Positions 3,171 to 19,586 of a stretch of DNA of 41,363 nt are shown in pieces. The stretch comes from Anaerolineae bacterium (GTDB lineage Bacteria; Chloroflexota; Anaerolineae; B4-G1; DUEL01), in contig JANXAH010000035.1 of assembly GCA_025062415.1 (NCBI GenBank), positions 1 to 41,363 on the forward strand. The letters are read 5' to 3'. How positions within the stretch are numbered: position 1 is the first letter of the stretch; each line of letters starts with the position of its first letter. Under the pieces are notes generated by a model. That model was given only the letters and a program-made list of their open reading frames with translations, searched no databases and was not told the origin of the DNA. A program made the translations under genes and the position numbers.

Positions 3171-3248
3171 CTCTGTCCTCCGAAGCAGGGGTGGGGCAGA
3201 ACGTTGCTGTGGAAGGAGACGTCAAGAGGCGCTGATAACTTTAAATGG

Positions 3249-3277
3249 ATTATACACCTTCGCCGATGCTTGTGCAA
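3249..3277 (-). promoter_or_regulatory. Sigma70-type promoter for the VWA-FHA/kinase genes
   Basis: Minus strand TTGCAC-N17-TATAAT, about 80 bp upstream of ATG 3170. Confidence 0.65.
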
Positions 3278-3315
3278 GTCGCACGGTGGCCAATTGCAAA
3301 TGGTCGTTCCATATA

Positions 3316-3392
3316 GCGGCCTCCATCAGCGGGTCGCAGGCTTCCTGAGGGGAGATGGGGGGCCACCAGATGTGCTGGATATGCCCGGCGGG
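3316..3392 (-). pseudogene. Degenerate duplicate of the 3' part of the adjacent PP2C gene
   Basis: 77-bp ungapped match to 3482-3558 with 15 mismatches by manual alignment; translates as PAGHIQHIWWPPISPQEACDPLMEAA versus PDEHIWHIWRTSTSPQEACDRLVEAA. Confidence 0.8.
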
Positions 3393-3413
3393 GCAACTGC
3401 TTGCAGTTGCCCC
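3390..3413. repeat. REP-like palindrome downstream of the PP2C gene
   Basis: Perfect 11-bp inverted repeat GGGGCAACTGC-TT-GCAGTTGCCCC, 10 bp past the stop codon. Confidence 0.7.
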
Positions 3414-3423
3414 ACCAACTCCT

Positions 3424-5178
3424 CTAACGTCCCACCTGAACGACGATGACGCTAATGTTATCCTCCCCTCCGGCACTGTTGGCCGCTTCCACCAGCCGGT
3501 CGCAAGCCTCCTGAGGGGAGGTGGAAGTCCGCCAGATGTGCCAGATATGCTCGTCGGGAACCATCCCGCTTAGCCCATCGCTGCAGAGCAGGAGGGCCTC
3601 GCCGGGCGCTAACCGGCGCTCAAAGAAATCCGCTTCCACCCGGGGCTTATCGCCAAGGGTGCGGTAGATAACATTTTTTTGAGGGTGGGTGGCGGCTTCT
3701 TCGCGGGTGATCTGGCCCGTGGCGACCAGGCGCTCCACCAGGGAGTGGTCCACGGTAATCTGCTCAATGCCGTCGGGACGGAGGTGGTAGGCCCGGCTGT
3801 CGCCAATGTTGGCAATAGTCGCCGCATCGCCCAGCATCAGCGCGACCACGAGGGTGGTGCCCATATCGGTTCCAGCGACCCGGCGCTGGTTGTAGATGGT
3901 CCAGTTGGCCTGCTGGATGACAGCAGAGAGCCACTCTCGGGGTGTGGGGAGGGGCTGTCCGGCCGCGTGGGGGGCCAGGATTTCGCCGCCGACCCGCTGA
4001 GCCAGGGTGCGGATCACTATCTGGCTGGCCACATCCCCTGCCTCGTGCCCGCCCATCCCGTCGGCGATGGCCGCAAGGGCGACGGGAATCCCCTGGGAGC
4101 GGAAGGCCATCACCGTCTGAAGGGCCAGCAGGCTATCTTCGTTGAGGGTCCGTTCCATTCCCACGTCGGTGCGGCAGCCCAGCGTCAGCGTGACGTGGGC
4201 GGGGCGACGCATCTGAGCCAGCCGTTCCTCCAGCATGGCGGCCACCTGACCAGCAGTGAGCGCTCCTGGGTTCGCCAGGACCCGGACAAGAACTTCCAGT
4301 TCCGGCGGGAATGGCCCTGGCCGTCGGAGGTCCCAGGCCCGGCCGGTCGCCAGGTACAGAAGGAGGGCGGCCATTCCAGCCAGGTCTCGGGCGAAATAGG
4401 CAGTGGCCCGGCTCTGCTCCGCAGCCGAAAGTACCTGGGCGTTCTCCAGGGAGAGCCAGAAGGCCCGATCTCCCTCCACACCGATCCGGCCCAGGTCCAT
4501 CTCGCCAAGCGTGATCCCTTGCCGGTGCAGGTGTTCCAGCGCGCGGGCCAGCGTGATTCCCCACTCCAGAACCCGAAGAGATTCTTGAGGAACGGGGAGG
4601 GAGGCAGCCAGCACAGGAAGGTGTTCCGTCTCCACAGCGTAGGCGCGAGGCGGGCCATAGGGGGCCTCGGTAAAGACCTCCCGGGGCAGGAAAAGGCCAG
4701 GATGGTCCACTCCGGCCTGGAGGAGGAGGGCCGGAACCACGAAGGCCCGCTCGTGCGCGCTCTCCCGCACCCGATAGCGCAGCAGAACGGGCGCTGCATC
4801 GGAGAGGTCGGCGCCGCAGGCGACGCAGAACCGTTCGTCCGGAGAGCGGACTTCCGCGCGACACTGGGGACACAGGCGGACGGGCTGCGTCTCTTCCACC
4901 AGGTACTCGTTCATTTGCTCCCCGGCTGCGCGCACCTCCAGCACCGCGTACTGCCCCTCCTTCAGCAGAGCCCCTTCCGGCAGGGGAGCGAAGGCGACGG
5001 GGGCGGGCAGAGGACGGGTAGGGACATCGGCAGTCTGGGCGTGGGATGACGTTGGGAGAAGAGGCTTTGTGGGCTGCCGGGAGGAGCGAATCCGGGAAGA
5101 GGCTTCCAGCGCTGCGCCGCAATTCTGGCAGAACCGCGCGCTGGGGCGGTTCTCCGCACCGCATCGGGAGCACCTCAT
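3424..5178 (-). CDS. Zinc ribbon + pseudokinase + PP2C (Stp1/PrpC-type) Ser/Thr phosphatase fusion
   Basis: Start placed at ATG 5178 (ATGA overlap with upstream stop, AGGAGG RBS). CxxC..FCxxCG ribbons; kinase-like region with HRD read as LGE and DFG as SLE; intact PP2C motifs TDVG-R-NEDS, ADGMGGH, MGTT, GDSRAY, DHS, CSDGL, GGEDN. Confidence 0.9.
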   Translation of the reverse strand: MRCSRCGAENRPSARFCQNCGAALEASSRIRSSRQPTKPLLPTSSHAQTADVPTRPLPAPVAFAPLPEGALLKEGQYAVLEVRAAGEQMNEYLVEETQPVRLCPQCRAEVRSPDERFCVACGADLSDAAPVLLRYRVRESAHERAFVVPALLLQAGVDHPGLFLPREVFTEAPYGPPRAYAVETEHLPVLAASLPVPQESLRVLEWGITLARALEHLHRQGITLGEMDLGRIGVEGDRAFWLSLENAQVLSAAEQSRATAYFARDLAGMAALLLYLATGRAWDLRRPGPFPPELEVLVRVLANPGALTAGQVAAMLEERLAQMRRPAHVTLTLGCRTDVGMERTLNEDSLLALQTVMAFRSQGIPVALAAIADGMGGHEAGDVASQIVIRTLAQRVGGEILAPHAAGQPLPTPREWLSAVIQQANWTIYNQRRVAGTDMGTTLVVALMLGDAATIANIGDSRAYHLRPDGIEQITVDHSLVERLVATGQITREEAATHPQKNVIYRTLGDKPRVEADFFERRLAPGEALLLCSDGLSGMVPDEHIWHIWRTSTSPQEACDRLVEAANSAGGEDNISVIVVQVGR

Positions 5179-5960
5179 GACACACCTCCTTCCCCGGTCC
5201 GAAAGATGAAGGTTACGCTGCCGATTTGGAGTTCCCAGCCATCCCGGAGTAGGTTGTGCCGGGTCCGGCGGCCGTTCACGTAGACGCCATTGGTGGAGCC
5301 CAGGTCTTCCACAGCCCAGTCGTTCCCCCGGCGGTAGAGGCGAGCGTGGCGGCGGGAGACAGTCTCCCATCCCGCGAACTCGGCGGTGATGACCAGATCG
5401 TTATCCGGCGCGCGCCCTATCGTCAGCGATTCCTTCTCCAAGGGCCAGCGAAAGCGCCGCCCGGCCAGGGTGGCCTCCAGCGAGGGTGGGGTGGGGGGAG
5501 TCGGGGGCAGGGGTCGGGTAGGCCTGCGGGGCCGGGGGCGCCTCCGGAACAGGGAGACCCCGATCAGAACCAGCAGCAGGAGGACCAGCAGCCCTGCGCA
5601 TCCCGCTCCGAACAGGGGCCAGTAGGGGACAAGCACTTGTATAATCCCTATCATCCCGGAGACGGTCGGGGTGGTCCCAGGCGTCGGCGAGGGTGTTGGG
5701 AGGAGCGGGACGGTCGGGGTAGGGGAGGGAGGGAGTTCGGTGGGGCTGGGGGAAGGGGATGGGGGAGTAGGAGAGGGCGTCTCGCTGGTCGGGGTCGCCG
5801 TTGGAGTGGGTTCCGGAGGGGGAGGGGGAGTGGCCGACGTGACTTCCGGCAACTGAAAGGTGGGCATCGGGGGTGGGGAGAACCCCACCACCAGCGCGAG
5901 GGAGGTCACGATGCCGAGGACCAGAAGAACCCGGAAAGCGGGAACACCGAAAGCGCTCAT
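5175..5960 (-). CDS. Membrane protein with Pro/Thr-rich ectodomain and C-terminal FHA domain
   Basis: Start placed at ATG 5960 (AGGAGG RBS). Signal/TM segment, PT-rich linker, second TM, then FHA motifs IGRAPDN, VSRRHA, GSTNG. Confidence 0.88.
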   Translation of the reverse strand: MSAFGVPAFRVLLVLGIVTSLALVVGFSPPPMPTFQLPEVTSATPPPPPEPTPTATPTSETPSPTPPSPSPSPTELPPSPTPTVPLLPTPSPTPGTTPTVSGMIGIIQVLVPYWPLFGAGCAGLLVLLLLVLIGVSLFRRRPRPRRPTRPLPPTPPTPPSLEATLAGRRFRWPLEKESLTIGRAPDNDLVITAEFAGWETVSRRHARLYRRGNDWAVEDLGSTNGVYVNGRRTRHNLLRDGWELQIGSVTFIFRTGEGGVS

Positions 5961-5986
5961 ACAGGCCTCCTGAGGAGAAACCTCGC

Positions 5987-6601
5987 TTACGGGGCGGCGT
6001 CCGTGAACACGCATCGGACCGCGCCAAAGCTGATCACATCGCCGGAGCGAAGGACATAGGGCTGATGCGGAGGGAGCATGGTGCCCCCCACGAACGTTCC
6101 GTTGCGGGAGGGGAGCGGGATCAGGACCCACCGGGTTCCCTGCTTGCGCAGCCGGGCATGGGTTCTGGAAACGGTCTCTCCGCCGGGCTGGGTAGAGAGG
6201 TCTATATCCGGCTGCTGTCCCCGTCGGGCATCCCCCCGGCCGACCAACAGTTCCGGCTTGCCCAGATGGTCCAGCAGAACCGGCTGGCCCGAGACAAACC
6301 GGAGGGAGGCCGAACCCCGAACGGGCCAACCGCTATGGTGAGACAACTGGAGGGAATACCGGATCAGTTCCAGCCGGTCTCCCATCTTCACCCCCAGTTC
6401 GTCCAGAGTCCGGCCGTCGGGAAAGGGCTGCCCTCTCCGGCCCAGGCGATACTCCACCAGCCAACCGGATACGGTGGTGGGAATCTGGAGGGCCTGGATC
6501 AGTGCCACCGTCAGATGCCGAACCGGCACATCTTCCGGGACTTCCAGGTCCCGGCTTCCCTGGAGGGGATCAGGGAGTTTCACCGTGATGACGACAGCCA
6601 T
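5987..6601 (-). CDS. EsaB/YukD-type ubiquitin-like domain fused to FHA domain
   Basis: N-terminal DLEVPEDVPVRHL..TLDELGVKMGDRLEL fits the YukD/EsaB pattern; C-terminal FHA motifs VGRGD, VSRTHA, SRNGT; adjacent to WXG100 and essC. Confidence 0.85.
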   Translation of the reverse strand: MAVVITVKLPDPLQGSRDLEVPEDVPVRHLTVALIQALQIPTTVSGWLVEYRLGRRGQPFPDGRTLDELGVKMGDRLELIRYSLQLSHHSGWPVRGSASLRFVSGQPVLLDHLGKPELLVGRGDARRGQQPDIDLSTQPGGETVSRTHARLRKQGTRWVLIPLPSRNGTFVGGTMLPPHQPYVLRSGDVISFGAVRCVFTDAAP

Positions 6602-6612
6602 ACCTGTTATAG

Positions 6613-6640
6613 AGTATACTCCTTACTGCCCGATTTGCAA
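6613..6640 (-). promoter_or_regulatory. Sigma70-type promoter for the yukD-FHA operon (near-leaderless)
   Basis: Minus strand TTGCAA-N16-TATACT; the -10 box ends 11 nt before ATG 6601. Confidence 0.55.
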
Positions 6641-6697
6641 ATTCTGGCTGTGTTGGTGAGGCATCGGCTCGCAGTTGTTCCCTTTCGGCTCCAGAAC

Positions 6698-6725
6698 TTG
6701 ACAATCGGCGGAAAGTCGCTATAAA
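6698..6725 (+). promoter_or_regulatory. Sigma70-type promoter for the WXG100 gene
   Basis: TTGACA-N16-TATAAA; strong AAGGAGG RBS before ATG 6805. Confidence 0.65.
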
Positions 6726-6804
6726 AGAAGGTAGGGCTTTTCTCCAGAACTTTGTCTGCCGCCCAGACTGTATCGTTCCCCCAGACTTTAGAAGGAGGAC
6801 TGCC

Positions 6805-7083
6805 ATGGTGGAGATCCGCGTATCCCCCGAGCGGCTTCGCAGTGTCGCCAGCCAGCTGGAGCAGAAACGGCAGGAGGCCGACCAGATTCTGGCGACCATG
6901 ATTCAGACGGTCAACAACCTCAGCGGCGAGTGGACCGGCCTGGCTCAGGTGGACTACGCCAACATCTTCAACGAACGGGTGCCCGCGATGAGGACTAACC
7001 TCAGCGAAGTGCTGGAGAACCTGATCCGGGCCCTGCGCCACATCGCCGACGAGTTTGAACGGGTGGACCAGACGGTCATCTAA
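6805..7083 (+). CDS. WXG100 family type VII secretion substrate (EsxA/YukE-like)
   Basis: 92 aa, N-terminal IRVSPERL, central W-T-G motif (SGEWTGLA), predicted helical hairpin, C-terminal FERVD resembling the YxxxD/E signal. Confidence 0.93.
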   Translation: MVEIRVSPERLRSVASQLEQKRQEADQILATMIQTVNNLSGEWTGLAQVDYANIFNERVPAMRTNLSEVLENLIRALRHIADEFERVDQTVI

Positions 7084-7094
7084 TGTAGCGACCA

Positions 7095-7130
7095 AACGTG
7101 CCAGGCGCTGCGGGAAGCGCCTGGCACGTT
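7095..7130. repeat. REP-like hairpin / probable bidirectional terminator between convergent WXG100 and essC genes
   Basis: Perfect 15-bp inverted repeat AACGTGCCAGGCGCT-N6-AGCGCCTGGCACGTT; related copy at 16718-16751. Confidence 0.75.
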
Positions 7131-7153
7131 CCCTGCCTTCCGCTTTTCGTTTC

Positions 7154-10100
7154 TTATTCTTCAGGCCAGGCCGCCGGGGGCACTCCCACCTGGGTCCAGT
7201 GGTCGCGGATTTCTGTTGCCCGGCGGGCGATGGTATTCGCGTCGCCCGCAAAGGCTACCTGCACCATCTCCTCCTGGCCGTGGCGGGCAAGGAACCCTCG
7301 CCCTGCTACCATCCGGGTCAGGTCTGAGGCCCGGACGCGAACCCCCAGGGGGTTCTGGTCTCCCGCCTCCAGGGGCCGCAGGACAAACCCCGATCGCCAC
7401 AGCCGCACCTGTCTGGGCAGCGGGTCGCTGTATCCCACTCCCAGGTTGGGCAGCGGGCCCGCAAGAATGATGTGGAAATGGACGTCCCGGCCCCGTCGGG
7501 ACAGCAGGTCCAGCCCCTGCTGGATATCTCTCTCCCCGCTGAGCGCGTTGGAGAAGTCATCGTAGTCGTCCCAAACGGCCACAATGCGGGGCAACTGGTT
7601 TCCAGCAGAGATATCCTCGGCGAAGAGAGCGTCCCGCCGGTGGATCTCCCGGATGATTCGGGCCATCGTTCCCTTTTGCTGGAAATCTCGGTAGGAGCGG
7701 GCGAACTCCAGAATGTGGGGGAGCCCGTCCAGGGGTTGGAGGCTGTTGCGGCGCCCGGAGATCAGGATGAACTGGACCTCCTGAGGCGAGTAGAGCGTCG
7801 CCAGGGCCAGCATCCAGGCCATCAGCAGACTCGTCTTTCCGCTCTGGGGGGTACCGGTGACCACGAAATCGGGGCCGTCCTCCACCAAATCTATCCACGT
7901 GGGGCGCAACCGGATGCTCTCCACACCGATGGGCACAGCCAAAGCCGAACCGGCTGGCCGCCCTCCGGCACGGGCCAGTAGATTGTCCAGGGGGAGCAAT
8001 TCCGGCATCGTCGCCACCGGCTCGGGCAGAGGGCCCTTCCAGGCCCGGCGCATCTCCGTGGCCAGTTGGCGCAGTTCCTTCGCTTGGGCCTCCTCGTCCT
8101 CCTCGTACCCGGGAGAAGCGGTCTGAAACTCCAGCGGGGGACGACCGTACCAGCCCCGGCCCGGGGGCATTGGGTCGTCCTTCCCCATCCGGGGACGCTG
8201 TCCCAGGATCAGGGAATACTCGTCCGGGTCCCCCAGGCGCAAAACCGCCCGACGGGCCACAACGCTGCTGATGGCCGCAGGGATCTCCCCAGGCCGGTCT
8301 CCCACCATCACCACGTGGATGTCGTAGTTTCCCCCCTCCCGCACCAGCCGAAGCAGGGTGCTGTATTCCTCCGGGAACTGCTGACGAAAGTCGCCGAACC
8401 CAGTTACCACCACCACCAGGGCCGGCGGCACATCGCCCGGCCTTTGCTGGCGCAACTGGCTCAGCCGGTCCACGTGAGCCCGATGGCAGAGTTCTATGCG
8501 GGCCTCCAGTTCGTCCTCCAGGCGGACCCAGGCCCGCCGGATCCGCTCCTCGTCCATCGGAGTGAAGACGCCCACCACGTGGGGCAGCGGTTCCAGAACT
8601 CGCAGCGCCTGCCCGCCAAAGTCCACCAGGTAGAAATGGACCTCCTCCGGGGTGTGGGTCCGGGCAAGGCTGACGACCAGAGTGCGCAGCCACATCTCTT
8701 TGCCCGAAGCGGGAGCCCCGATCACCAGCAGGTGTCCGTCCTGGTCTCCCAGGTCCAGCCGCCAGGGCTCCTGTCGCTGATGGGCAGGGTCGTCCAGCAG
8801 GCCCAGGAGGGCCCGTAGCCAGGGGCGGTTGGGGAGGTCGGGGGCGCGCGGGGTGGGGGAGTCCGGCGGGGATAGGCTCTTCCCGCAGGACGCACAGAAG
8901 CGGGCTCCGATCCGAACGGCTCCCTGGCAGTGCGGGCAGCGGAGCGTCACAGGAGCCCCACAGCGGCCGCAGAAGCGGGCCCCTGGTCGGAGTGAGGCCC
9001 CACACTGACCGCAGAAGTGAGGCGGGCGGAGGCGGGGAAAGGGCTCAAACCACCACCCCTCTCCGTCCCATCCAGCCAGCCCCTCCTGTTTCAGTAGCTT
9101 GGGAAGGGGGATATGCGCCGGCAGTGGTTCCGGCCAGGGGCTGGAAAGTTTCTTCAGCCCCATGCGCCTGGCTATGGCGGCCAGGTGCTGGGTCACCACC
9201 TCCAGGTCCGTCCGAGCGGTTCCGGACTTCTGCTGGGGGAGAAACTTGCGGGAATCGTAGAGTTCTCGCCGTTCCCCTGTCGCCGTGACCTCCCGGATCA
9301 CGATGCGCTCGGTCGGCTGGCCGATCAGGGTGTCGGTATCTCCGGCAGCCCGATAGGTGCTGGCCACCCGTGCGACCTGAAAGAGTTCAAAGACCTCGTT
9401 ATCCCCCACCTGCAGGTAACCCCGACCCGGCATCCGGGGAAGGTAGGCGGCATCCGGTCGGCGAAGCATATCCTGGCTTTCCGCCGTATCCTCCACCCGC
9501 AGGCAGATACGAAAGCGGGAGTTGGCCCAGATTTGCTGGCTCACCTTCCCCCGCGGGCTCTGAGTCGCCAGGATCAGGTGGATCCCCAGCGACCGGCCGA
9601 CCCGGGCCACCCGGACCAGGCCGTCCATAAACTCCGGGTAGTCGGTGACCAGTTCCGCAAACTCGTCCACGATGATGACCACTCGGGGAAGGGGCTCCAT
9701 GCCCTGACCCTGTCGCTGCCAGTAAAGTTCCTGATAGCGGGCAATATCGTTGACGTTGAACTGGTTGAACAAATGTTCTCTGCGCTTGATCTCCGCCTCC
9801 AGTGCCACCAGGGCCCGCTCGGCCAGGTTGCCGCTGATATTGGTCACCAGCCCCAGGACGTGGGGAAGAGGGGCCAGAGGAGAAAACGCGCCGCCGCCCT
9901 TGAAGTCCACCAGAATGAAGCCCAGGTCGTGGGGATGGTGGCTCAGGGCCAGGCTGATCACCAAGGTCTGGAGCAGTTCGCTTTTGCCGGAGCCTGTAGT
10001 CCCGGCGATCAGTCCATGGGGGCCGTGACCGGTGTGGCTTAAGTCCAGCACCAGCGGCTGGCCGCCCTTTCGGACCCCCAGCACTGCCTTCAGCAGGCGG

Positions 10101-11461
10101 TCCGGGGCCCGCCGGGTCCACGCAGCCTGTGCATCGTACTGCTGGATATCCCGGATTCCCAGGACCTCCAGCAAGCGGATGCTGGAGGGAAGGGCTACCG
10201 CACTCTCCGGGGAGAAGACTCGCAGAGGCGCCAGAGCTCGGGCCAGACTCTCGCTCCAGAGGGGATCCACCTGATCGGGTGTACCAAAGAGGGGCGGGGC
10301 CGCCACACCCACCATCTGGATCATGACGGAGGCGGAAGACGAGACCTCCGCCACATACGCGCATCCCTGAGGCAGCCGGGACAGGTGGTCGGCCAGAAAA
10401 ATCGCCGTCGCGTTCAAATGTCGCCCTTCTGCCAGGAGCAGGTGGAGCGCCGGGTGATGCAGGTCCAACCGGTCGTCCTCCACCAGAAGGACCAGCCAGG
10501 GCCAGTCCGGCGGAGCACTGTCGGCGCGGCGGGAGGAGAGCCGATTCTTCCGCTCGCTCAGTTCGTCCAGCAGCCGGTGCAGCAGTTCCTGGGCAGAAGC
10601 GGCGTCGCAGGCCAGGTGGGGAAAGCGGACGTTCCCGTCCAGGACGTGGGTGTGAGGAAGCCACTTGAGCCACTCCCATTCTGGAACCCGCTGGGGGGAG
10701 TAGATGGCCAGCAGGTGGGCTTCGTCGGGAACGTGGTGGACGACCAGACTGGCGATAAGGGCCCGGGCCAGGCCATTGCGTAGGGGGAGGCTGCCAGTGA
10801 TCCCCAGCGGTCCGGCCCGCAGGTTCACCGTAAGGGGAACATCGGGCACCTGCTGGTACTCCGATTCCAGGTTCAGCACAGGCTGGTAGCGGGGGTCCGA
10901 GATCTCCGGGCGAGGTGCAGAAACTTTCACCGAAGAGGGAAGAGTGCCCACACCAATGCGAAGGCTCAGGAAATCCTCGTCGGTGGGGCGTCGCTCCCAG
11001 AGGCGGCGGTCCCGGTTCTGAGCCCGGATCAGCAGAATGTGGGGGTCCGGGTCCTTCTCCGTCCGAATGTGCTGTTGCCGGACCCGGAGTTGGTGGAGAT
11101 GCTGGGCGTATTGCTGGAGGGCCTGCTGGTAGGCCTGCTCTTTGGCCTCCTGTTCTCTCCGGTGTTGACGGCGCTGAGATTGAGTCCCCAGGATGCCTCC
11201 CAGGGCCGACATAATGGACATCGCCAGCATCCCCGCCGAGGCAAGATACTGCATCTTTCCCGGGCCATGGTCGCTGGCCAGGCCGCTGGCGAGTAGATAG
11301 ACGCCCACCATCAGCAGTACACCGGCCACCGGCAGGAGGGTGGTGTACCAGCTGAACCAGGGAGGCGGAGTAAGGGACGGAGGAGGTGGGAGTTTGACCT
11401 CTCCTGAGGGCAGCGGCTCCAGAATGCGCGGGGGACGGTTAAAATCTATCGTGGCGCTCAT
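7154..11461 (-). CDS. essC: Type VII secretion FtsK/SpoIIIE ATPase (EssC/EccC) with inserted double zinc ribbon
   Basis: Start placed at ATG 11461 (AAGGAG RBS, MSATIDFNRPPR). Two TM helices, LWERRPTDEDFL DUF region, HGPHGLIAGTTGSGKSE with IVDEFAEL (ATPase 1), GAPASGKE (ATPase 2), GTPQSGKT (ATPase 3). Confidence 0.93.
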   Translation of the reverse strand: MSATIDFNRPPRILEPLPSGEVKLPPPPSLTPPPWFSWYTTLLPVAGVLLMVGVYLLASGLASDHGPGKMQYLASAGMLAMSIMSALGGILGTQSQRRQHRREQEAKEQAYQQALQQYAQHLHQLRVRQQHIRTEKDPDPHILLIRAQNRDRRLWERRPTDEDFLSLRIGVGTLPSSVKVSAPRPEISDPRYQPVLNLESEYQQVPDVPLTVNLRAGPLGITGSLPLRNGLARALIASLVVHHVPDEAHLLAIYSPQRVPEWEWLKWLPHTHVLDGNVRFPHLACDAASAQELLHRLLDELSERKNRLSSRRADSAPPDWPWLVLLVEDDRLDLHHPALHLLLAEGRHLNATAIFLADHLSRLPQGCAYVAEVSSSASVMIQMVGVAAPPLFGTPDQVDPLWSESLARALAPLRVFSPESAVALPSSIRLLEVLGIRDIQQYDAQAAWTRRAPDRLLKAVLGVRKGGQPLVLDLSHTGHGPHGLIAGTTGSGKSELLQTLVISLALSHHPHDLGFILVDFKGGGAFSPLAPLPHVLGLVTNISGNLAERALVALEAEIKRREHLFNQFNVNDIARYQELYWQRQGQGMEPLPRVVIIVDEFAELVTDYPEFMDGLVRVARVGRSLGIHLILATQSPRGKVSQQIWANSRFRICLRVEDTAESQDMLRRPDAAYLPRMPGRGYLQVGDNEVFELFQVARVASTYRAAGDTDTLIGQPTERIVIREVTATGERRELYDSRKFLPQQKSGTARTDLEVVTQHLAAIARRMGLKKLSSPWPEPLPAHIPLPKLLKQEGLAGWDGEGWWFEPFPRLRPPHFCGQCGASLRPGARFCGRCGAPVTLRCPHCQGAVRIGARFCASCGKSLSPPDSPTPRAPDLPNRPWLRALLGLLDDPAHQRQEPWRLDLGDQDGHLLVIGAPASGKEMWLRTLVVSLARTHTPEEVHFYLVDFGGQALRVLEPLPHVVGVFTPMDEERIRRAWVRLEDELEARIELCHRAHVDRLSQLRQQRPGDVPPALVVVVTGFGDFRQQFPEEYSTLLRLVREGGNYDIHVVMVGDRPGEIPAAISSVVARRAVLRLGDPDEYSLILGQRPRMGKDDPMPPGRGWYGRPPLEFQTASPGYEEDEEAQAKELRQLATEMRRAWKGPLPEPVATMPELLPLDNLLARAGGRPAGSALAVPIGVESIRLRPTWIDLVEDGPDFVVTGTPQSGKTSLLMAWMLALATLYSPQEVQFILISGRRNSLQPLDGLPHILEFARSYRDFQQKGTMARIIREIHRRDALFAEDISAGNQLPRIVAVWDDYDDFSNALSGERDIQQGLDLLSRRGRDVHFHIILAGPLPNLGVGYSDPLPRQVRLWRSGFVLRPLEAGDQNPLGVRVRASDLTRMVAGRGFLARHGQEEMVQVAFAGDANTIARRATEIRDHWTQVGVPPAAWPEE

Positions 11462-11496
11462 CCGGACTCCTTGTCCCGTGGCGTCCACCTCATTAG

Positions 11497-11525
11497 AGTA
11501 TACCAGATTTCGGGGGAACGGGCAA
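11497..11525 (-). promoter_or_regulatory. Sigma70-type promoter for essC
   Basis: Minus strand TTGCCC-N17-TATACT with TG extended -10, 35 bp upstream of ATG 11461. Confidence 0.6.
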
Positions 11526-11569
11526 CGGGGGGCTGGCTGATGTTGGGGCCAGGTGGGCGCGCTCATTTT

Positions 11570-11597
11570 GATTCGGATAGTGTATCTTATCCGAATC
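11570..11597. other. dif/lox-like tyrosine recombinase site
   Basis: GATTCGGATAG-TGTATC-TTATCCGAATC: 11-6-11 geometry, arms inverted with one mismatch, 18/28 identical to E. coli dif (GGTGCGCATAA-TGTATA-TTATGTTAAAT); about 160 bp upstream of a Xer-family gene. Confidence 0.7.
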
Positions 11598-11641
11598 ATA
11601 GGCCGGCGCAGGCCCCACACATGCCCCACCCTGCCGGAAGT

Positions 11642-11669
11642 TTGACAGATCGGCCATCTATCTTACAAT
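11642..11669 (+). promoter_or_regulatory. Sigma70-type promoter for the tyrosine recombinase
   Basis: TTGACA-N16-TACAAT. Confidence 0.65.
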
Positions 11670-11756
11670 AGAACGGATGGAGTAAAAACAGGAGATAACT
11701 CTGGCCCAGACACGCCTTTCGTCCAGAGGTCGGGAGAGACGGGAGCGAAAACCCAG

Positions 11757-12740
11757 ATGACCGATGTGACCCTCCGGGATGCCCTACAGAAGTTCCTGGA
11801 CGAGATCGCGGCCAGCCGCAGCCCCAACACCCACAAGGCCTACCGCCAGGCCGCGGCCCGCTTCGCCGAGGTTCTCTCCGCCCATGGCATCTCCCCTGCC
11901 CTGACCCCCGTCTCCGACCTCTCCGTAGAATGGATGGGCTGGTACATCCAGGACCTCCACAACGCCTCCGTCGCCACTGAACAACTGTACATCACCGCCC
12001 TCCGGGCCTTCTACGAGTACGCGGCCGCGCAGGAATGGGCCTCGGTCAACCTGCCCGCCCTGCATCGCCTCTGCCGCCGACGGGCCCGCCGGGAGGCAGC
12101 GCGACTGCCACCGTTTCCTCGCGCTGAAATAGAGAAAATTTTGGAGACCGTCGCCCAGGCCGCCGCTGCCCCACCCCAAGACGAGCGGAAACTCCTGCGA
12201 ATTTTAAGAGACCGTGCTCTACTTTATGTCCTGGCCGACACGGGCCTGCGGGTCTCCGAGGCCTGCTCCCTGACCCGCGGGCATATGGATTGGACGGAAG
12301 CGCGGGCGCGCGTCCTGGGAAAAGGCGGACGGGAGTCCATCGTCCGCTTCTCCGAACGGAGCCTTCGCTACCTGCGGGCCTACCTGGACGCCCGTGCCGA
12401 ACTGGACGGACGCCAGGGCCGTCCCCTGACCAGTTTGCCCCTCTTTGCCCGCCACGACCGGAGGGCCGGGAAACGGGTGCTCCCCCTCTCCGCCCGCTCC
12501 GCCGAGAAGGTCGTTGAGGAATGGGTTGTACGGGCGCTGGGCGAAAGAGCCCGCGGGACCATCACCCCCCACACCTTCCGTCATTATTTTGTGACCGTGG
12601 TCCTGCGGGGCAGCGGCGGCAACGTCCGGCTGGCCCAGGAACTGGCCCGCCACCGCAGCATCACCACCACCCAGCGCTATACCCACTTAAGCGACGACGA
12701 ACTGGACCGGGGATACCACGAGATTTTCAACGAAATGTAG
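11757..12740 (+). CDS. XerC/XerD-family tyrosine recombinase
   Basis: 327 aa; N-terminal SAM-like region (SPNTHKAYR); catalytic motifs DTGLRVSE, GKG, HTFRH, ARH and QRYTH. Confidence 0.93.
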   Translation: MTDVTLRDALQKFLDEIAASRSPNTHKAYRQAAARFAEVLSAHGISPALTPVSDLSVEWMGWYIQDLHNASVATEQLYITALRAFYEYAAAQEWASVNLPALHRLCRRRARREAARLPPFPRAEIEKILETVAQAAAAPPQDERKLLRILRDRALLYVLADTGLRVSEACSLTRGHMDWTEARARVLGKGGRESIVRFSERSLRYLRAYLDARAELDGRQGRPLTSLPLFARHDRRAGKRVLPLSARSAEKVVEEWVVRALGERARGTITPHTFRHYFVTVVLRGSGGNVRLAQELARHRSITTTQRYTHLSDDELDRGYHEIFNEM

Positions 12741-12839
12741 AACAACTGCTTTTGGATATTTTCAAGCCGCCCTCCGCAAAAGGCCAAACTTCAGGGATGG
12801 CAGTGTAGCCGCCGGGGGTGGAGCGAGGCAATGGGTAAA

Positions 12840-12883
12840 TCAAGCCCCACGGGGCTTGACAATTCCCCCGCAGGGAGTATACT
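12840..12883 (+). promoter_or_regulatory. Sigma70-type promoter overlapped by a palindrome
   Basis: TTGACA (12856)-N16-TATACT (12878); perfect 9-bp inverted repeat TCAAGCCCC-AC-GGGGCTTGA (12840-12859) overlaps the -35 box. Confidence 0.6.
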
Positions 12884-12922
12884 TTCGGCGGAAAAACGCC
12901 TGCTGGACCCGAGTCTACCCAT

Positions 12923-13471
12923 ATGGAACAAGAGACCGGACGACGGCTGACCCCTGTCCAGATGACCCTTCTGGGCATCATCCTGCTGACCATCCCCTGC
13001 TACTGCCTGGGGTTTTCCCTGCTCTACCTGTATTCCACACCGGCGCGTCCGACGCCCGTGCCGACCGTTGTGACCGATACGCCCACGGCGACGCGCACTC
13101 CCGCCCTGCCCACGGCGACGCTGGAGCCGACGCCGACCCAGTGGTGGCCCCCCACCAACACGCCGACCGCCACCCCCACGGCGACCCTGACCCCAACCCC
13201 GACACCGACGCCGACGGCCACCGCCACGCCGACCCAGACGCCCACTCCGACGGCGACGCCGACGCTTACGCCGACCTGGACACCTGTTCCGCCGTCCCCC
13301 ACCCCGACGGCCACCCCCACGCCGACCGCGACGCCCCTGCCCCCGTCGCCGACGGAGACCCCAGTTCCACCGACGCCCACTCCGACCCCCTCCGCCCAGG
13401 CGCTGCCGACTGAGACCCCCACGCCGACAGAGGCGCCAGCGGGCACCCCTTCCCCCACCCCATCTGTCTGA
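12923..13471 (+). CDS. Membrane-anchored Thr/Pro-rich low-complexity protein
   Basis: N-terminal TM ([22 protein letters not shown]) followed by about 145 aa of TPT/ATP repeats. Confidence 0.75.
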
Positions 13472-13505
13472 ATTCCGTCCATCTTTCAGGAGAGACTGGA
13501 CCGTT

Positions 13506-14558
13506 ATGGATACTGTTCGCCTGCTGAAACAACTTTCGGAGACTCCAGGGCTCCCTGGGCACGAGGAGCCGGTACGGGCCCTCGTCCGGGAACTGTGGGC
13601 CCCACTGGTAGATGAACTGCAGACCGATGGGCTCGGCAGTCTGATCGGTCGCCGATACGGAAGTGGCCCGGAACCTCGCCCGGCCCTGATGTTTGCCGCC
13701 CATATGGACGAAATTGGCCTGCGGGTGACCGGCATAGAGAAGGGCTTTTTGCGCGTGACCCGCGTGGGTGGGGCCGACCGCCGTATCTTGCCGGGCACAG
13801 AGGTCGTCGTCCACGGCCGGCGCGACCTTCCCGGCGTCGTCGGTATGCCCCCGCCCCACGTGATCCCCCCTGACCAACGGAATAAGACGCTCCCCTGGGA
13901 GGAACTGTTCGTGGACGTGGGACTGCCAGAGGAAGAGGTGAAGGCTCTCGTCCAGGTGGGAGACCCCATCTCCTTTCGGCGGGAGGCCGTGGAACTGAAG
14001 AACGGCCTGTTTTCCGGTAAGGCCCTGGACAATCGGGTCTCTGTGGCGGTGGTAACTCTGGCCCTGGAGCATCTCTTCCGCCTCTCCCATGCCTGGGATA
14101 TTGTCGCCGTAGCGACTGTGCAGGAGGAGGTGGGGCTCTATGGGGCTGCCACCGCGGCCTACGGCGTCGCTCCCGATATGGCTGTCGCCGTGGACGTGAC
14201 CTTTGGACGACAGGCCGGGGTCTCCAACCATCTGACTTTCCCCCTGGGTGAGGGCATCGCCATCGGCGTCGGCCCTAACTTCCACCCGGCGGTCGTGGAG
14301 CGGTTGAAGAAGACCGCCGAGGCTAACGAAATTCCCTACCACATAGACCCCATTCCGGGCCGCAGCGGCACCGACGCCTGGGCCATCCAGGTCAGCCGCG
14401 AGGGGATTCCCACTGGTCTGGTCTCCATCCCGCTCCGCTATATGCACCAGCCGGTGGAGATCGTTTCGGTGAAGGACGTGGACCGGGCCGGGCGACTGCT
14501 CGCTCTCCTCGCCGCCGGACTGGAGCCCGACTTCCGGCCCCGCTGGGAGGACGAGTAA
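13506..14558 (+). CDS. M42 (TET/FrvX) family aminopeptidase 1
   Basis: AAHMDEIG, KALDNR, QEEVG, VDVT, GTDA, YMH motifs. Confidence 0.93.
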   Translation: MDTVRLLKQLSETPGLPGHEEPVRALVRELWAPLVDELQTDGLGSLIGRRYGSGPEPRPALMFAAHMDEIGLRVTGIEKGFLRVTRVGGADRRILPGTEVVVHGRRDLPGVVGMPPPHVIPPDQRNKTLPWEELFVDVGLPEEEVKALVQVGDPISFRREAVELKNGLFSGKALDNRVSVAVVTLALEHLFRLSHAWDIVAVATVQEEVGLYGAATAAYGVAPDMAVAVDVTFGRQAGVSNHLTFPLGEGIAIGVGPNFHPAVVERLKKTAEANEIPYHIDPIPGRSGTDAWAIQVSREGIPTGLVSIPLRYMHQPVEIVSVKDVDRAGRLLALLAAGLEPDFRPRWEDE

Positions 14559-14625
14559 GGGGTAAGCGGCCTCCGTACTACCGCCGACCACTTGATTGAA
14601 CAAAGAAGCCTGAGGTGAGCGAACT

Positions 14626-15660
14626 GTGGAACTCCTGAAGGAACTCTCTGAAGCCTTTGGCCCTTCTGGCTATGAGAAGGAGGTCCGGCAGGTTTTGCGC
14701 CGGACCTTGGAGGGATACGCCGACCGGATGTGGGTGGACGCGCTGGGGAACCTCCACGTCGTCCGGGAGGGGACGGCCCCGGAGCGCCTCCGGGTCTTGC
14801 TGGCGGCCCATATGGACGAGATCGGCCTGATGGTCGTGGGGCACGACGAATCCGGCGGGCTGCGGGTGAAGGCCATCGGCGGGATAGACGACCGGGTCCT
14901 GCCCGGCACCCAGGTCTGGGTGGGGCCCGACCGAATTCCCGGCGTCATCGGCCTCAAGCCCGTTCACCTGCTGGAGGAAGGGGAGGACGAGAGAGTCGTT
15001 AAAATAGAACAATTACTGGTGGACATCGGGGCGAAGGGGAAAGAGGAGGCTCAACGGTTGGCGCCTCTGGGAACCCCGATGGTCTTTGCCACCCGGTTTG
15101 AGTCCCTGGGTACGCTGGTCAAGGGGAAGTCCTTTGACGATCGGGCCGGATGCGCGGTGTTGGCGGAATTGGTGCGCGGCGACCGTCTGCCCCACGACCT
15201 GCACGCCGTCTTCACTGTACAGGAGGAGGTGGGGTTGCGGGGCGCGCGCGTGGCCGCCTACGCGGCCCGGCCCGACTGTGCCTTCGCACTGGAGGGAACC
15301 ATCGCCAACGACCTGCCCAAGAAGAAGGACGTCAGCCCGACTTCCGAACTGGGAAAGGGGCCGGCCATCACGGTGATGGACCGGACCTTCATCGCCCATC
15401 GGGGGCTGGTCCGCCTGCTGATGGAAACGGCGGAGACGCTGAATATCCCCTATCAGGTCAAGCAGCCGGGGATCGGCGGCACCGACTCCGGCGCGATCCA
15501 CCTGGCCCGCGAGGGCATCCCCTGTGGCACTGTTGCCGTCCCCTGCCGCTACATCCACAGTCCCGTCAGCCTGCTCTCCCCGAAGGACCTGGAAAACACG
15601 GTCTGGCTGATGCGGGAGAGCCTGGCCCGGCTGACGCGCAAAACTCTGGAATTCTCCTGA
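14626..15660 (+). CDS. M42 family aminopeptidase 2
   Basis: GTG start; AAHMDEIG, KSFDDR, QEEVG, LEGT, GTDS, YIHSP motifs. Confidence 0.93.
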   Translation: MELLKELSEAFGPSGYEKEVRQVLRRTLEGYADRMWVDALGNLHVVREGTAPERLRVLLAAHMDEIGLMVVGHDESGGLRVKAIGGIDDRVLPGTQVWVGPDRIPGVIGLKPVHLLEEGEDERVVKIEQLLVDIGAKGKEEAQRLAPLGTPMVFATRFESLGTLVKGKSFDDRAGCAVLAELVRGDRLPHDLHAVFTVQEEVGLRGARVAAYAARPDCAFALEGTIANDLPKKKDVSPTSELGKGPAITVMDRTFIAHRGLVRLLMETAETLNIPYQVKQPGIGGTDSGAIHLAREGIPCGTVAVPCRYIHSPVSLLSPKDLENTVWLMRESLARLTRKTLEFS

Positions 15661-15729
15661 TTCCCGTCGGACTAAAGGAGGTTTTAGCACATTATCGCCA
15701 TCCTGGCAATCCTTTCCGGAAGGAGACCT

Positions 15730-16710
15730 ATGTACGACCTGATCCGCAGATTGACCGAAGCCTACGGTCCATCGGGTTTTGAAGACAACATCCGCTCGGT
15801 TCTGCGTGCCGAAGTGGAGCCCTTCGCCGACGAAATCCGGGTGACCCCCCTGGGGAGCCTGGTCGCCGTCCGGCGGGGGAGTGGCAACGGGCGCCGTGTT
15901 CTGCTGGCGGCACATATGGACGAAATTGGCGTGATGGTCACCTATGTGGATGAGAAGGGTTTCCTGCGCTTTACCCCCATCGGCGGCGTCTCCCCACTCA
16001 CGTGTGTGGGCGCGCGCGTCCGCTTTGAGAATGGCACCTTAGGGGTCATCGGTGTGGAGAAGCGGGAGGACCCGAACAAACTCCCGACGTTTGAACAACT
16101 GTACATAGACGTGGGGGCGACCGGCCGCGCCGATTGTCCGGTTCGGGTGGGCGACGCGGCGGTTTTTGAGCGGCCCTTCGCCGCCCAGGGGCGACGGCTG
16201 GTCGCCAAAGCGATGGACGACCGCATTGGCTGCGCGGTGCTGGTGGAAACGCTGCGGCGGCTCCGCACGACGCCCCACGAGGTCCACTTCGTCTTCAGCG
16301 TCCAGGAGGAGACGACCCTCTCCGGCGCCCGGACGGCAGCCTATGGGATTGAGCCGGATATGGCCGTCGCCGTGGACGTGACGGGGACGGGGGACACGCC
16401 GGAGAGCCGACCGATGGCAGTGGAACTGGGCAAGGGGCCAGCCATCAAGGTCCAGGACGCGGGGATGATCGCCCACCCGATGGTTCGGGATTGGCTGGTG
16501 CGCGCGGCGGAGGCGGCAGGAGTGCCCTATCAGATGGAGGTCCTGGAGCGGGGAACGACCGATGCCGCAGCCATGCAACTGGTCCGCTCCGGCGTTCCAT
16601 CCGGCTGTCTCTCCATCCCCTGTCGGTACATCCACACTCCCAGCGAGATGGTGGATGGGGACGATGTGGAGATGGCCGTCCGGGTCCTTGTGCAGGCTCT
16701 ACAGATGTGA
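15730..16710 (+). CDS. M42 family aminopeptidase 3
   Basis: AAHMDEIG, KAMDDR, QEE, VDVT, TTDA, YIHTP motifs; AAGGAG RBS. Confidence 0.93.
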   Translation: MYDLIRRLTEAYGPSGFEDNIRSVLRAEVEPFADEIRVTPLGSLVAVRRGSGNGRRVLLAAHMDEIGVMVTYVDEKGFLRFTPIGGVSPLTCVGARVRFENGTLGVIGVEKREDPNKLPTFEQLYIDVGATGRADCPVRVGDAAVFERPFAAQGRRLVAKAMDDRIGCAVLVETLRRLRTTPHEVHFVFSVQEETTLSGARTAAYGIEPDMAVAVDVTGTGDTPESRPMAVELGKGPAIKVQDAGMIAHPMVRDWLVRAAEAAGVPYQMEVLERGTTDAAAMQLVRSGVPSGCLSIPCRYIHTPSEMVDGDDVEMAVRVLVQALQM

Positions 16711-16717
16711 GGCTCCG

Positions 16718-16751
16718 ACGTGCCGGGCACTTCCGGGGTGCCTGGCACGTT
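16718..16751. terminator. REP-like hairpin / terminator between convergent genes
   Basis: ACGTGCCGGGCAC-N7-GTGCCTGGCACGT followed by T residues; same family as 7095-7130. Confidence 0.7.
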
Positions 16752-17492
16752 TTATGTTTTCCACAGGCGGGCCAGTTTCCGGTATTTGACCATCTCGTAG
16801 TAGGCCATCAGCCCCGAAAGCCGCAGCCCGTGCCACCCGTCCCGAATCCCCCGCAGCGTCACAAACCGCCACCAGAAGTGGCGCAGGGCCTGGGTGTATG
16901 GGGTGTAGAAACGAGGGCGGACCCCTTCCTGGAAGAGCACGCGGGCGTCGTAGTCCGTGTACCGCTCCTGTCGGGCGACGAAGTCCGCCAGGTCGTCGTA
17001 GTTGTAGTGGATGAGGGGGCTCTTCAGATAGCCGGTGGGACCGTCCACAATGGCGATCTCGTGAACCGCCCGCTCCCAGCGGGCGAACCCTCGCCGGAAA
17101 AGGCGGAACTGGTAATCCGGATACCATCCGGCGCCCCGCGTCAGCCGGCCGAAGATGTAGTTGTGGCGGGGAACCCACCAGCCGACTTCCGGCCTCTCCT
17201 CCGCCAGGATGGCCCGAATCTCGTCCGCCAGATCCGGTGTGGCCCGTTCGTCGGCGTCCACGAAGAAAATCCAGTCGGCAACAACCTGCTCCAGCGCGGC
17301 GTTGCGCTGCTGGGCGTAGTTCTCAAAGGGGTGCTGAAGGACCTCTGCCCCCAGCGCGCGGGCCAGTTCCACGGTTCGGTCGGTGCTGAAGGAGTCAAAG
17401 ACAATGCGCCGGTCGGCCCACGCGAGGCTCTCCAGACAGGCCACGATATGGGCCTCTTCGTTGTAGGTCAGGACAACCGCAGCCAGGCTCAT
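16752..17492 (-). CDS. Glycosyltransferase family 2 (WaaE/KdtX-like)
   Basis: Start placed at ATG 17492 (ATGA overlap). VLTYNEE, DSFSTDRT, QRNAAL, FVDADE, WYPDYQFRLF, VHE motifs. Confidence 0.9.
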   Translation of the reverse strand: MSLAAVVLTYNEEAHIVACLESLAWADRRIVFDSFSTDRTVELARALGAEVLQHPFENYAQQRNAALEQVVADWIFFVDADERATPDLADEIRAILAEERPEVGWWVPRHNYIFGRLTRGAGWYPDYQFRLFRRGFARWERAVHEIAIVDGPTGYLKSPLIHYNYDDLADFVARQERYTDYDARVLFQEGVRPRFYTPYTQALRHFWWRFVTLRGIRDGWHGLRLSGLMAYYEMVKYRKLARLWKT

Positions 17493-18403
17493 CGCTGTCG
17501 CTCCCAGGCCTGAAGGACTTGTTGAATGGCAGCACGCCACTCTGGAGGGGCGCCCTGCATCCGCCGTCGCAGCCCGACCCGGACCAGGAGACGGGCCAGG
17601 TGAAAGACGGGCCGGGGATGGTGGCGGGCGTAAAGCCGGGCTCGGCTGGTCCAGAGGTTTACAAACGAGGGGATGGGGACCTGGCCCGTAGAACGGCCCG
17701 CGTAGTGGATGACCTGTGCTTGTGGAACGCAGAGGGCCCCCCACCCTGCCCGTCGCATTCGCCAACACCAGTCAATCTCCTCGCAATACAGGCGATATCC
17801 TTCGTCCATCAGGCCGACCCGGTCCACTGCCTCTGTCCGGACCATCATCGCGGCTCCCAGGGGGTGGTCCACCGGGAATGGCCTCTCCCCTTCGTAGAGG
17901 CGACGGGGGTACCGTCCGTTCAGCGGGGTCTCGTAGAGCCGCGGAGGGAGGGGGAAGAGGTCAAAGGCCAGTTGGACCAGGCCGGGAAAGCGGAAGGCCG
18001 AATGCTGGAGGGCGCCGTCGGGATAGAGGAGTTTCGGTCCCGCGACGCCGACGCGCGGGTTCTCCTCCAGGGCCCGAACCAGCGTTGCCGTCGCGCCGGG
18101 GAGGACTTCCGTATCGGGGTTCAGAAGCCAGAGGTAGCGGGGGCGGTCCGGGGAAGGAGCATCCAGCAGGGCGTGCAGGGCCCGGTTGTTCCCAGCCGCA
18201 AAGCCGACGTTCTCCCCCAGCGCCATCAGCCGGACGTCCGGGAACTCCCGGCGGATCATCTCCGAGGTGCCGTCGGCCGAGCCGTTGTCCACCACCCACA
18301 CCGGGGCATCCAGCCCTGAACGTTCCAGGTCTGCCTGCAAACTCTGCAGGCAGGCCCGCAGCAGGTCCCGGACGTTCCAGGTCACGATGATGACGGCGAG
18401 CAT
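17489..18403 (-). CDS. Glycosyltransferase family 2 (WbbL/GT2-like)
   Basis: IIVTWN, VVDNGSADG, NVGFAAGNN, LLNPDT, GAAMMVR, YCEEIDWC motifs. Confidence 0.92.
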   Translation of the reverse strand: MLAVIIVTWNVRDLLRACLQSLQADLERSGLDAPVWVVDNGSADGTSEMIRREFPDVRLMALGENVGFAAGNNRALHALLDAPSPDRPRYLWLLNPDTEVLPGATATLVRALEENPRVGVAGPKLLYPDGALQHSAFRFPGLVQLAFDLFPLPPRLYETPLNGRYPRRLYEGERPFPVDHPLGAAMMVRTEAVDRVGLMDEGYRLYCEEIDWCWRMRRAGWGALCVPQAQVIHYAGRSTGQVPIPSFVNLWTSRARLYARHHPRPVFHLARLLVRVGLRRRMQGAPPEWRAAIQQVLQAWERQR

Positions 18404-19543: not shown

Positions 19544-19586
19544 GGCGGGGGCGGCGGCCCGCCTGCGGCGGGCCGCCGCCCCCGCC
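19544..19586. repeat. All-GC 20-bp perfect inverted repeat between convergent genes
   Basis: GGCGGGGGCGGCGGCCCGCC-TGC-GGCGGGCCGCCGCCCCCGCC. Confidence 0.8.

Follow-up and report, generated by a model that had tools for sequence, protein, structure and literature searches.

Resolution of chromosome dimers is nearly universal in bacteria with circular chromosomes. To our knowledge, few solutions that use a single recombinase have been described, namely XerS, XerH, XerA and XerL. For two of these, XerS and XerH, a dif site lying beside the recombinase gene has been put forward as a possible hallmark (PMC5357621). Lacking have been accounts of such systems from Chloroflexota. As far as the text of PMC3025954 goes, systematic dif prediction in this phylum covers three Dehalococcoides genomes, and its Table S1 could hold more. 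A term search of the tyrosine-recombinase classification in PMC8138268 gave no mention of Chloroflexi in the text it covered, and a full-text literature search found nothing on Xer or dif in Anaerolineae.

Here we describe a stretch of 41,363 nucleotides from an Anaerolineae bacterium (assembly GCA_025062415.1, contig JANXAH010000035.1, positions 1 to 41,363 of the forward strand), referred to below as the window. It is one entire contig (C106) of a genome of 2,702,142 bases in 264 contigs that is 93% complete. In the intergenic space between two divergent genes lies a short inverted repeat, and one of those genes encodes a Xer-like tyrosine recombinase, P0001. We interpret the repeat as the chromosome dif site and the adjacent gene as that of a Xer-type recombinase acting there, which together would form a single-recombinase module like XerS/difSL, XerH/difH and XerL. 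We put the probability of this reading at roughly three in four. As far as the literature search shows, recombinases of the P0001 type look not yet to have been described in print. The features at the centre of the analysis are as follows.

11569..11598, no strand: dif-like recombination site of 30 nt, an 11-8-11 inverted repeat
11569-11579: left arm of the site, TGATTCGGATA
11580-11587: central 8 nt of the site, GTGTATCT
11588-11598: right arm of the site, TATCCGAATCA
11757..12740, + strand: Xer-like tyrosine recombinase P0001, 327 amino acids, identified from Pfam, an alignment of catalytic residues and a tree

The site and the adjacent recombinase

The inverted-repeat search of the window returned the two arms as 11 nt each, 100% complementary and separated by an 8-nt spacer. 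The 28-mer quoted in a preliminary description of this DNA is present at 11570-11597, which is the extent of the site in dif numbering (11-6-11, centre TGTATC); the symmetry is slightly larger than was given there, a perfect 11-8-11. Because the centre is non-palindromic, the site has a direction. Its guanine-plus-cytosine (G+C) content is 37% in a genome of 63%. The resemblances to known sites that had been pointed out are borne out by direct comparison. By hand count against Escherichia coli dif as printed in PMC3025954, 12 of the 14 central positions agree, as do 18 of all 28. The site has an 8-nt spacer in common with loxP (taken from Table 1 of PMC1479339), and the inner arm octamers TTCGGATA and TATCCGAA agree with TTCGTATA and TATACGAA of loxP, as given in that source, at 7 of 8 positions each. 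Several relatives' sites contain the loxP octamers exactly.

The site is a single-copy sequence. With up to three mismatches allowed, it has one match in the window (0 of 100 shuffles gave any), and the 28-mer has one match in the whole genome. The next-best place in the genome differs at 4 of 20 arm positions. A profile made from related sites recovers the known site as its sole match in the genome (E 0.007), with the next candidate at 7.6 bits and E 21. A second or degenerate site, as expected of an island or of an element that exploits Xer, was found in neither the window nor the genome.

Symmetry is a different matter. Perfect inverted repeats of at least 11 nt with spacers of 3-12 nt occur at five loci in the window, against an average of 0.4 in 20 Markov resamples (nested hits counted). 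The palindrome by itself is therefore weak evidence, and the case rests on conservation and position, not on symmetry. The other four repeats (7096-7129, 19549-19581, 28990-29023 and 34679-34711) are G+C-rich with arms of 11-14 nt, and are probably transcript hairpins unrelated to the site.

The recombinase gene starts 158 nt downstream of the site. Its product has the two domains of a tyrosine recombinase (Pfam Phage_integrase, 93.3 bits; Phage_int_SAM_1, 25.6 bits) and a complete catalytic set, R165, K189, H272, R275, H299 and Y308, which aligns with those of XerA (5hxy) and XerD (1a0p). Among proteins of solved structure XerA 5hxy is the best match, at 72 bits, and XerD 1a0p scores 68 bits. 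On the NCBIfam models P0001 stays below the cut-off each time: 146.1 bits against 335.15 for XerC (TIGR02224), 133.9 against 329.6 for XerD (TIGR02225), 127.3 against 220 for XerA (NF040815) and 68.4 against 267 for XerS. Judged by these sequence models, P0001 is not a member of the XerC, XerD, XerA or XerS families. The library matches included no XerH or XerL model, and these two enzymes were compared with P0001 by description. Public records label the homologues simply as 'tyrosine-type recombinase/integrase', 'XerC', 'XerD' or 'hypothetical'.

The tree agrees with this placement. It has 38 rows and a midpoint root; a truncated row (L110) was dropped, and two second-copy loci without a usable frame (L219 and L221) were left out. 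The rows of the P0001 type group together (18 of 18, support 100/100) outside the XerC and XerD clades, with a branch length of 2.32 substitutions per site, and this clade mirrors taxonomy. The canonical Anaerolineae proteins fall into the XerD clade, which includes E. coli XerD, and into a separate XerC-like clade of five rows; E. coli XerC is sister to the two together.

Conservation and position of the gene and site

The orthologue of P0001 is found as one match per genome in 22 of the 24 other genomes of the family, at 66-90% identity, and at 34-39% identity in other families of the order. Every family locus with upstream DNA carries the site beside it (21 of 21); at the remaining locus, L017, there is too little upstream DNA to judge. 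Counting that of the window, there are 22 sites, and both arms are without variation at positions 4-7 and 9-11 (22/22), which read TTCG-ATA and TAT-CGAA. Position 8 of the arms does vary, being non-mirror in nine of the 22, and 12 distinct central octamers occur. Conserved arms around a free centre are the pattern of a tyrosine-recombinase core site. Since the changes at position 8 go uncompensated in those nine sites, a hairpin is not what is selected, and we rejected a reading of the site as an RNA or DNA hairpin on these grounds.

The pairing extends across the class. We assembled 80 loci outside the family from Anaerolineales and other Anaerolineae (some recorded as Chloroflexia), at 48-61% identity. 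The best profile match lies 43-777 nt upstream of the gene in 66 of them, 62 of these with E<0.02; 50 of the 80 loci had supplied seeds of the profile. Among the 14 misses, upstream DNA falls short of 30 nt in two, and a variant with a CTTAAG core is present in at least three others. The class-wide sites have the common frame TGnTTnnGATAA-N6-TTATCnnAAnCA, in the same 30-nt register as in the window. One palindromic match with zero or one mismatch, always beside the gene, occurs in each of G041, G042, G043 and G045, and none at that stringency in G044. In five long contigs of relatives the profile finds the known site alone.

Two kinds of departure from the common arrangement were seen. In four Anaerolineales loci (L098, L105, L106 and L108) a variant site has the core CTTAAGTA in place of GATAAGTA. 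In another family of the same order (L031:3099-3124), a dif-like site TACTTCGCATAA...TTATCCGAAGTA lies about 560 nt downstream of the gene for a 37%-identical homologue.

The surroundings are not conserved in the same way. Among 34 relative loci, which represent 22 genomes, 12 of them twice, the recombinase is matched in 34 and the 3 kb to the left of the site in none; DNA beyond the recombinase matches the nearest relative alone. Gene and site therefore travel together through changing surroundings.

We examined the position of the site relative to the replication terminus in the four contigs of relatives that extend at least 20 kb on both sides of it. In all four, the site lies 0.07-23 kb from the maximum of the cumulative GC skew. 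Site, skew maximum, and skew to the left and right of the site are as follows.

G041:C8 (1.78 Mb): site 1,225,311; maximum 1,202,041; left +0.040 (200 kb), right -0.030 (200 kb)
G045:C35: site 89,227; maximum 100,964; left +0.050, right -0.074
G042:C11: site 152,382; maximum 146,732; left +0.047, right -0.040
G023:C195 (the window's family): site 54,432; maximum 54,501; left +0.041, right -0.040

For the longest contig, G041:C8, none of 10,000 block permutations gave so large a difference in skew, and windows sampled along the whole contig agree. Two shorter family contigs point the same way, but reach only 3-7.5 kb on one side. As a control of sign, the cumulative minimum in G023 (7275) has dnaA beside it (5863); the 50-kb contig that carries dnaA in G045 has positive skew over its whole length. 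With dnaA at the skew minimum, the leading strand is G-rich, and the maximum at the site thus marks the terminus. The preliminary description had cautioned that genes mostly diverge from the site, which is not typical of a terminus. Genes do tend to point away from it, and in the relatives gene orientation is without consistent replication bias. The caution carries no weight, as the switch in skew is independent of gene strand there: the drop from left to right is present in + strand genes and in - strand genes taken separately, in all four contigs.

A probable single enzyme, and the alternatives

The earlier proposal of a single-recombinase dimer-resolution module is thus supported by a unique site, its conservation beside the orthologue, a terminus-type switch of skew in relatives, and the lack of any XerC or XerD found in the genus. 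Since the arms are mirror images and neither XerC nor XerD was found there, one protein probably fills all four positions in the window's genus, a narrower claim that we hold with somewhat less assurance than the module as a whole. One enzyme is the simplest reading for this genus.

The search for other recombinases bears on this directly. With a true XerD as query, none of the 14 genomes of the genus (72-97% complete) yielded XerC or XerD; there were only sporadic integrases (at most 41% identity) and a catalytically dead paralogue. None of the 26 family genomes passes the cut-off of the XerD model. G041 and G044 carry the site and have no second Xer-like match above 91 bits. The window's own genome has five Phage_integrase matches: P0001, an enzyme on contig C87, a paralogue on contig C39 and two fragments. 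The C87 enzyme is intact and scores higher on the Xer models (190, 176 and 172 bits). We rejected it as the housekeeping Xer, as it occurs in only 4 of 26 family genomes; it adjoins a P-loop protein that, read by eye, is phage- or plasmid-like. The idea that the whole class lacks XerCD is likewise wrong: in an evenly drawn sample of Anaerolineae, 20 of 61 genomes pass the XerD cut-off, many with two high matches. The genome also encodes, on contig C16, an FtsK with a gamma domain (69.5 bits), and activation by FtsK gamma is plausible, fitting septum-coupled activation.

The paralogue on C39 (G000:C39:860-1654; L004:818-1726, - strand) is a Xer-like protein of 302 amino acids without the catalytic Arg, both His and the Tyr. 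TGIKK replaces the catalytic Arg, LRWTCA replaces HxxRH and ISWRE replaces the Tyr motif. It is kept at 67-85% identity in five of five family loci (L230-L234) and was found in all 14 genus genomes. In the window's own genome and in G002 the gene directly follows ftsZ; at the other four loci it does not.

By analogy with XerCD/dif, XerH/difH and Cre/loxP, one recombinase monomer would bind each 11-nt arm, and the two dif sites of a chromosome dimer would synapse at the closing septum. Y308 would cleave at the edges of the non-palindromic centre, strand pairs being exchanged in turn via a Holliday junction. The asymmetric centre would give the direction needed for resolution and not inversion, so that a dimer would become two monomers. 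We infer the binding, the cleavage positions, the homotetramer, control by FtsK and any autoregulation.

Several observations weigh against this reading. The terminus was examined in relatives because the window's own genome is in so many contigs that no whole-chromosome skew curve can be drawn on which to place the site. Within the window, the 11.5 kb on the left of the site have a skew of +0.057; values are negative at 11-15 kb and return to positive beyond about 15 kb, which leaves the right flank at +0.024 overall: a local switch is present, but no lasting one. The orthologue was not found in two of the 24 family genomes, which are 95% and 89% complete. In one genome of the class, G052 (L189), a canonical XerD (337.8 bits) occurs together with a relative of P0001 at 49% identity, and a profile search found no site within 1.5 kb upstream of the latter. 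Five of the 11 genera of the family (G016, G017, G020, G021 and G023) keep one XerD orthologue, which scores 257-291 bits and falls inside the XerD clade. It follows that a single recombinase is not a family-wide condition, or that XerD has another task there. Finally, a second recombinase in the window's own genome could be unassembled, given its 93% completeness.

The polarity of GGGNAGGG, the E. coli-type word that orients FtsK (PMC5357621), belongs in part with these points. Left of the site, from 1192 onward, the + strand has all 14 occurrences and the - strand has none; to the right, each of the first five (11894-17744) is on the - strand, and both orientations occur beyond 18.6 kb of the window. 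Counted as pointing toward versus away from the site, the word is strongly polar in G045 (20:0) and G042 (26:3), but weakly or not at all in G041 (27:16), G023 (12:11) and G013 (17:13). The motif is borrowed from E. coli and may not be that of this lineage. We regard the pattern as suggestive and exploratory. Polar 7- and 8-mers sought de novo around the site reached z of about 4-5 at best, the level of chance for thousands of tests; they were dropped, and the pre-defined GGGNAGGG alone was counted.

Part of the right flank has a distinct composition. Between about 20000 and 30000 the G+C fraction is 0.56-0.61 versus about 0.65, and the genes there encode an extracytoplasmic function sigma factor, AMMECR1, a fusion of a pyridoxal phosphate enzyme with a receiver domain, a hybrid histidine kinase, an EamA transporter and ribosomal protein L25. 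This flank may have been rearranged, and the stretch may be related to the loss of skew polarity there.

The alternative that survives best is a dif site acted on by two proteins: P0001 together with an XerD that is missing from the assemblies, or with the dead paralogue as a DNA-binding partner. The sister genera that keep XerD have no XerC-like partner in any of their five genomes, as if the P0001 type had taken the place of XerC, and the dead paralogue is conserved throughout the genus. In Anaerolineales the site arms are unequal (for example TTTCGATAA versus TTATCATAAA), and TTATCATAAA resembles the XerD-side arm of dif sequences given in PMC3025954. Incomplete assembly also leaves room for a partner. 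Yet the arms mirror each other in the window, and to the same degree in the genera with XerD; no XerD turned up in 14 genus genomes, and G041 and G044 carry the site with no second strong Xer-like match. A partner that has lost the catalytic Arg, His and Tyr would be unable to carry both strand exchanges through. On this balance we consider two proteins unlikely.

The role of XerD in the five sister genera bears on the same question. The canonical dif pattern ATAA-N6-TTATGTNAA has no exact match in their genomes, and matches with one mismatch are no commoner than those of a reversed-pattern control. In one of them, G023, the site of the P0001 type lies at the skew maximum. XerD in these genera is either idle or otherwise employed, or still taking part. 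In G017 its gene (L200:3104-4000) adjoins one read by eye as a purine nucleoside phosphorylase gene.

Keeping to one enzyme for the window's genus, we can ask how such a state arose. Thermoflexaceae might preserve a transition from two Xer proteins to one, in which the dif-adjacent recombinase replaced XerC first and XerD was then lost in the window's genus, with the dead paralogue perhaps a leftover DNA-binding factor. The end state would be one enzyme on a dif with mirror, loxP-like arms. The basis for this scenario, which we offer tentatively as a whole, is that sister genera have the P0001-type recombinase and a true XerD, with no XerC found.

The remaining alternatives involve the neighbours of the site, which are as follows.

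7154..11461, - strand: EssC/EccC-like ATPase of 1435 amino acids with a double zinc ribbon, a neighbour outside the module; Pfam FtsK_SpoIIIE 303 bits in three stretches, DZR 42 bits
11497..11525, - strand: weaker promoter-like site TTGCCC-17-TATACT before the FtsK/SpoIIIE-type gene; consensus scan 9/12, TG before the second hexamer
11642..11669, + strand: promoter-like site TTGACA-16-TACAAT, 44 nt downstream of the site; consensus scan, 11/12 matches
About 11708..11730, + strand: junction with about 600 nt absent, from alignment with relatives; breakpoints approximate

The preliminary description had placed the site between divergent genes, and so it is: the ATPase gene starts to the left at 11461 (an ATG behind AAGGAG), the recombinase gene to the right at 11757, and the promoter-like sites face outward. 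The element at 11642-11669 is, from its sequence, likely the promoter of the recombinase gene, and elements of this type are also visible in relatives L037, L039, L040, L043 and L045. The left promoter-like site is not conserved, because that flank is not common to the relatives.

Four close relatives (L037, L039, L041 and L043) have a MazE-type antitoxin and a PIN toxin between promoter and recombinase. In L037 (2362-3003) these give Pfam MazE_antitoxin 43.7 bits and PIN 64.8 bits, and the toxin stop overlaps the recombinase start. An element of the 11642-11669 type would drive such a vapBC-like pair together with the recombinase in some relatives. The window is without this stretch of about 600 nt and keeps only the flanking parts: 11624-11707 aligns with the relatives' promoter and antitoxin start, and 11731-11770 with the toxin end and recombinase start.

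A palindrome near a promoter could be a transcriptional operator only, bound by the recombinase or by another dimeric regulator with no recombination. Conserved half-sites and a variable spacer would also fit a dimeric DNA-binding protein, and the gene follows the site at 35-110 nt in Anaerolineales. In nine of 22 family loci the site directly follows ATAATA. In the four that were read (L040, L042, L045 and L046) this is the -10 of a TTGACA-17-TATAAT promoter ending 1-2 bases before the left arm, so that transcription would start inside the site. Autoregulation, which had been raised as a further possibility for this locus, may thus have been added in some lineages. The position of the site relative to promoters is not conserved, however, and such regulation cannot be the conserved function, since the window has no such abutting promoter: there, the -35 hexamer is 44 nt downstream of the site. 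Site and gene are 43-777 nt apart, a toxin-antitoxin pair can intervene, and an operator would leave unexplained both the position at the GC-skew maximum in four of four long contigs and the likeness to E. coli dif, with its ATA-N6-TAT core frame and 18 of 28 matching positions. We therefore think it improbable that the site is an operator and nothing else.

The site had also been proposed as the attachment or resolution site of a mobile island carrying type VII secretion system (T7SS) genes, with the recombinase as the island's integrase. The gene adjoining the site does differ between close relatives, a toxin-antitoxin pair stands beside the recombinase in some of them, and the recombinase reaches none of the Xer equivalog cut-offs. 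Two related sites are necessary for an integrated element, though, and only one was found in the window and genome. The gene is present as one match per genome, is vertically conserved (22/24 in the family) and forms a clade that mirrors taxonomy, while the C87 integrase occurs in 4 of 26. The gene-plus-site pair stays in place while its flanks change, the EssC-like flank being matched in none of 34 relative loci, and its terminus position also argues against an island. We consider this explanation very improbable, and the island carrying the T7SS did not hold up.

The neighbouring genes themselves form a row at 1113-11461 (- strand): a VWA and FHA protein, a zinc-ribbon and PP2C phosphatase, an FHA protein, a 214-amino-acid protein of unknown type and the triple FtsK/SpoIIIE ATPase. 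By their sequence they may be a T7SS-like (EssC/EccC-like) or FHA-signalling cluster; the label essC for the left gene is fair but unproven. This row adjoins the site in this genome alone.

The idea that the palindrome arose by chance, or is a structural hairpin of the terminator kind, can be dismissed: four other perfect inverted repeats of at least 11 nt do occur in the window, but they are G+C-rich while the site is not and has no T-run, a terminator scan of 11300-13000 found none, and conservation across a bacterial class with non-compensating arm changes contradicts it.

Significance and comparison with known systems

If the reading is correct, a class-wide module would be added to the known single-recombinase systems, and its site would allow the replication terminus to be recognised by sequence in fragmented Anaerolineae assemblies. 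It would also provide a thermophilic recombination system of one protein and 30 bp with loxP-like arms. One family with and without XerD would then bear on how two-recombinase systems collapse into one.

Among described systems, Cre/loxP of phage P1 likewise has mirror arms, an asymmetric 8-nt spacer and one enzyme. The arms of loxP are 13 nt long and belong to a phage or plasmid, whereas those here are 11 nt, and the likeness is confined to the inner octamers and the spacer length. Cre is absent among the solved-structure matches to P0001 at E<=1e-5, so the likeness to Cre/loxP lies in the site only. XerCD/dif of E. coli and Bacillus subtilis has the same 11-6-11 frame, the same ATA-N6-TAT core and the same catalytic residues, and FtsK gamma is present here too. 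XerCD differs in using two paralogous enzymes and unequal arms, with canonical genes that are not beside dif; here the arms are mirror images and the gene is adjacent.

In Legionellales a lone divergent recombinase, XerL, had escaped homology searches (PMC9765430). Its dif is situated near the skew maximum, with long inverted arms that run for 10-12 bp without interruption and were noted in that paper as special to XerL; mirror arms occur likewise here. According to the same source, dif and xerL are more than 400 kb apart in Legionella, in contrast to 158 nt in the window. XerL is also longer, with its catalytic Tyr at 387 (PMC9765430) against Y308 in P0001, a comparison made by description.

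XerH/difH of Helicobacter and Campylobacter likewise has a single recombinase with its site near the gene, and relatives of that lineage use XerCD (PMC5357621). The difH arms given there, AGTTATGAAAA and AAAAGTTTGA, are unrelated to TGATTCGGATA here, and XerH has 354-362 amino acids against 327 in P0001, again set side by side by description. XerS/difSL of streptococci and lactococci is alike in having one recombinase and a site immediately beside the gene, at the terminus (PMC5357621, PMC3025954). The sites differ: difSL has unequal arms around an 11-bp centre and measures 31 bp, whereas here mirror arms enclose a centre of 6-8 bp in a total of 28-30 bp; XerS has 356 amino acids, and P0001, as noted, scores well below the cut-off of its model. 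The trait that XerS/difSL and XerH/difH have in common, adjacency of site and gene, is present here as well, at 158 nt in the window and at 43-777 nt in 66 of the 80 class-wide loci.

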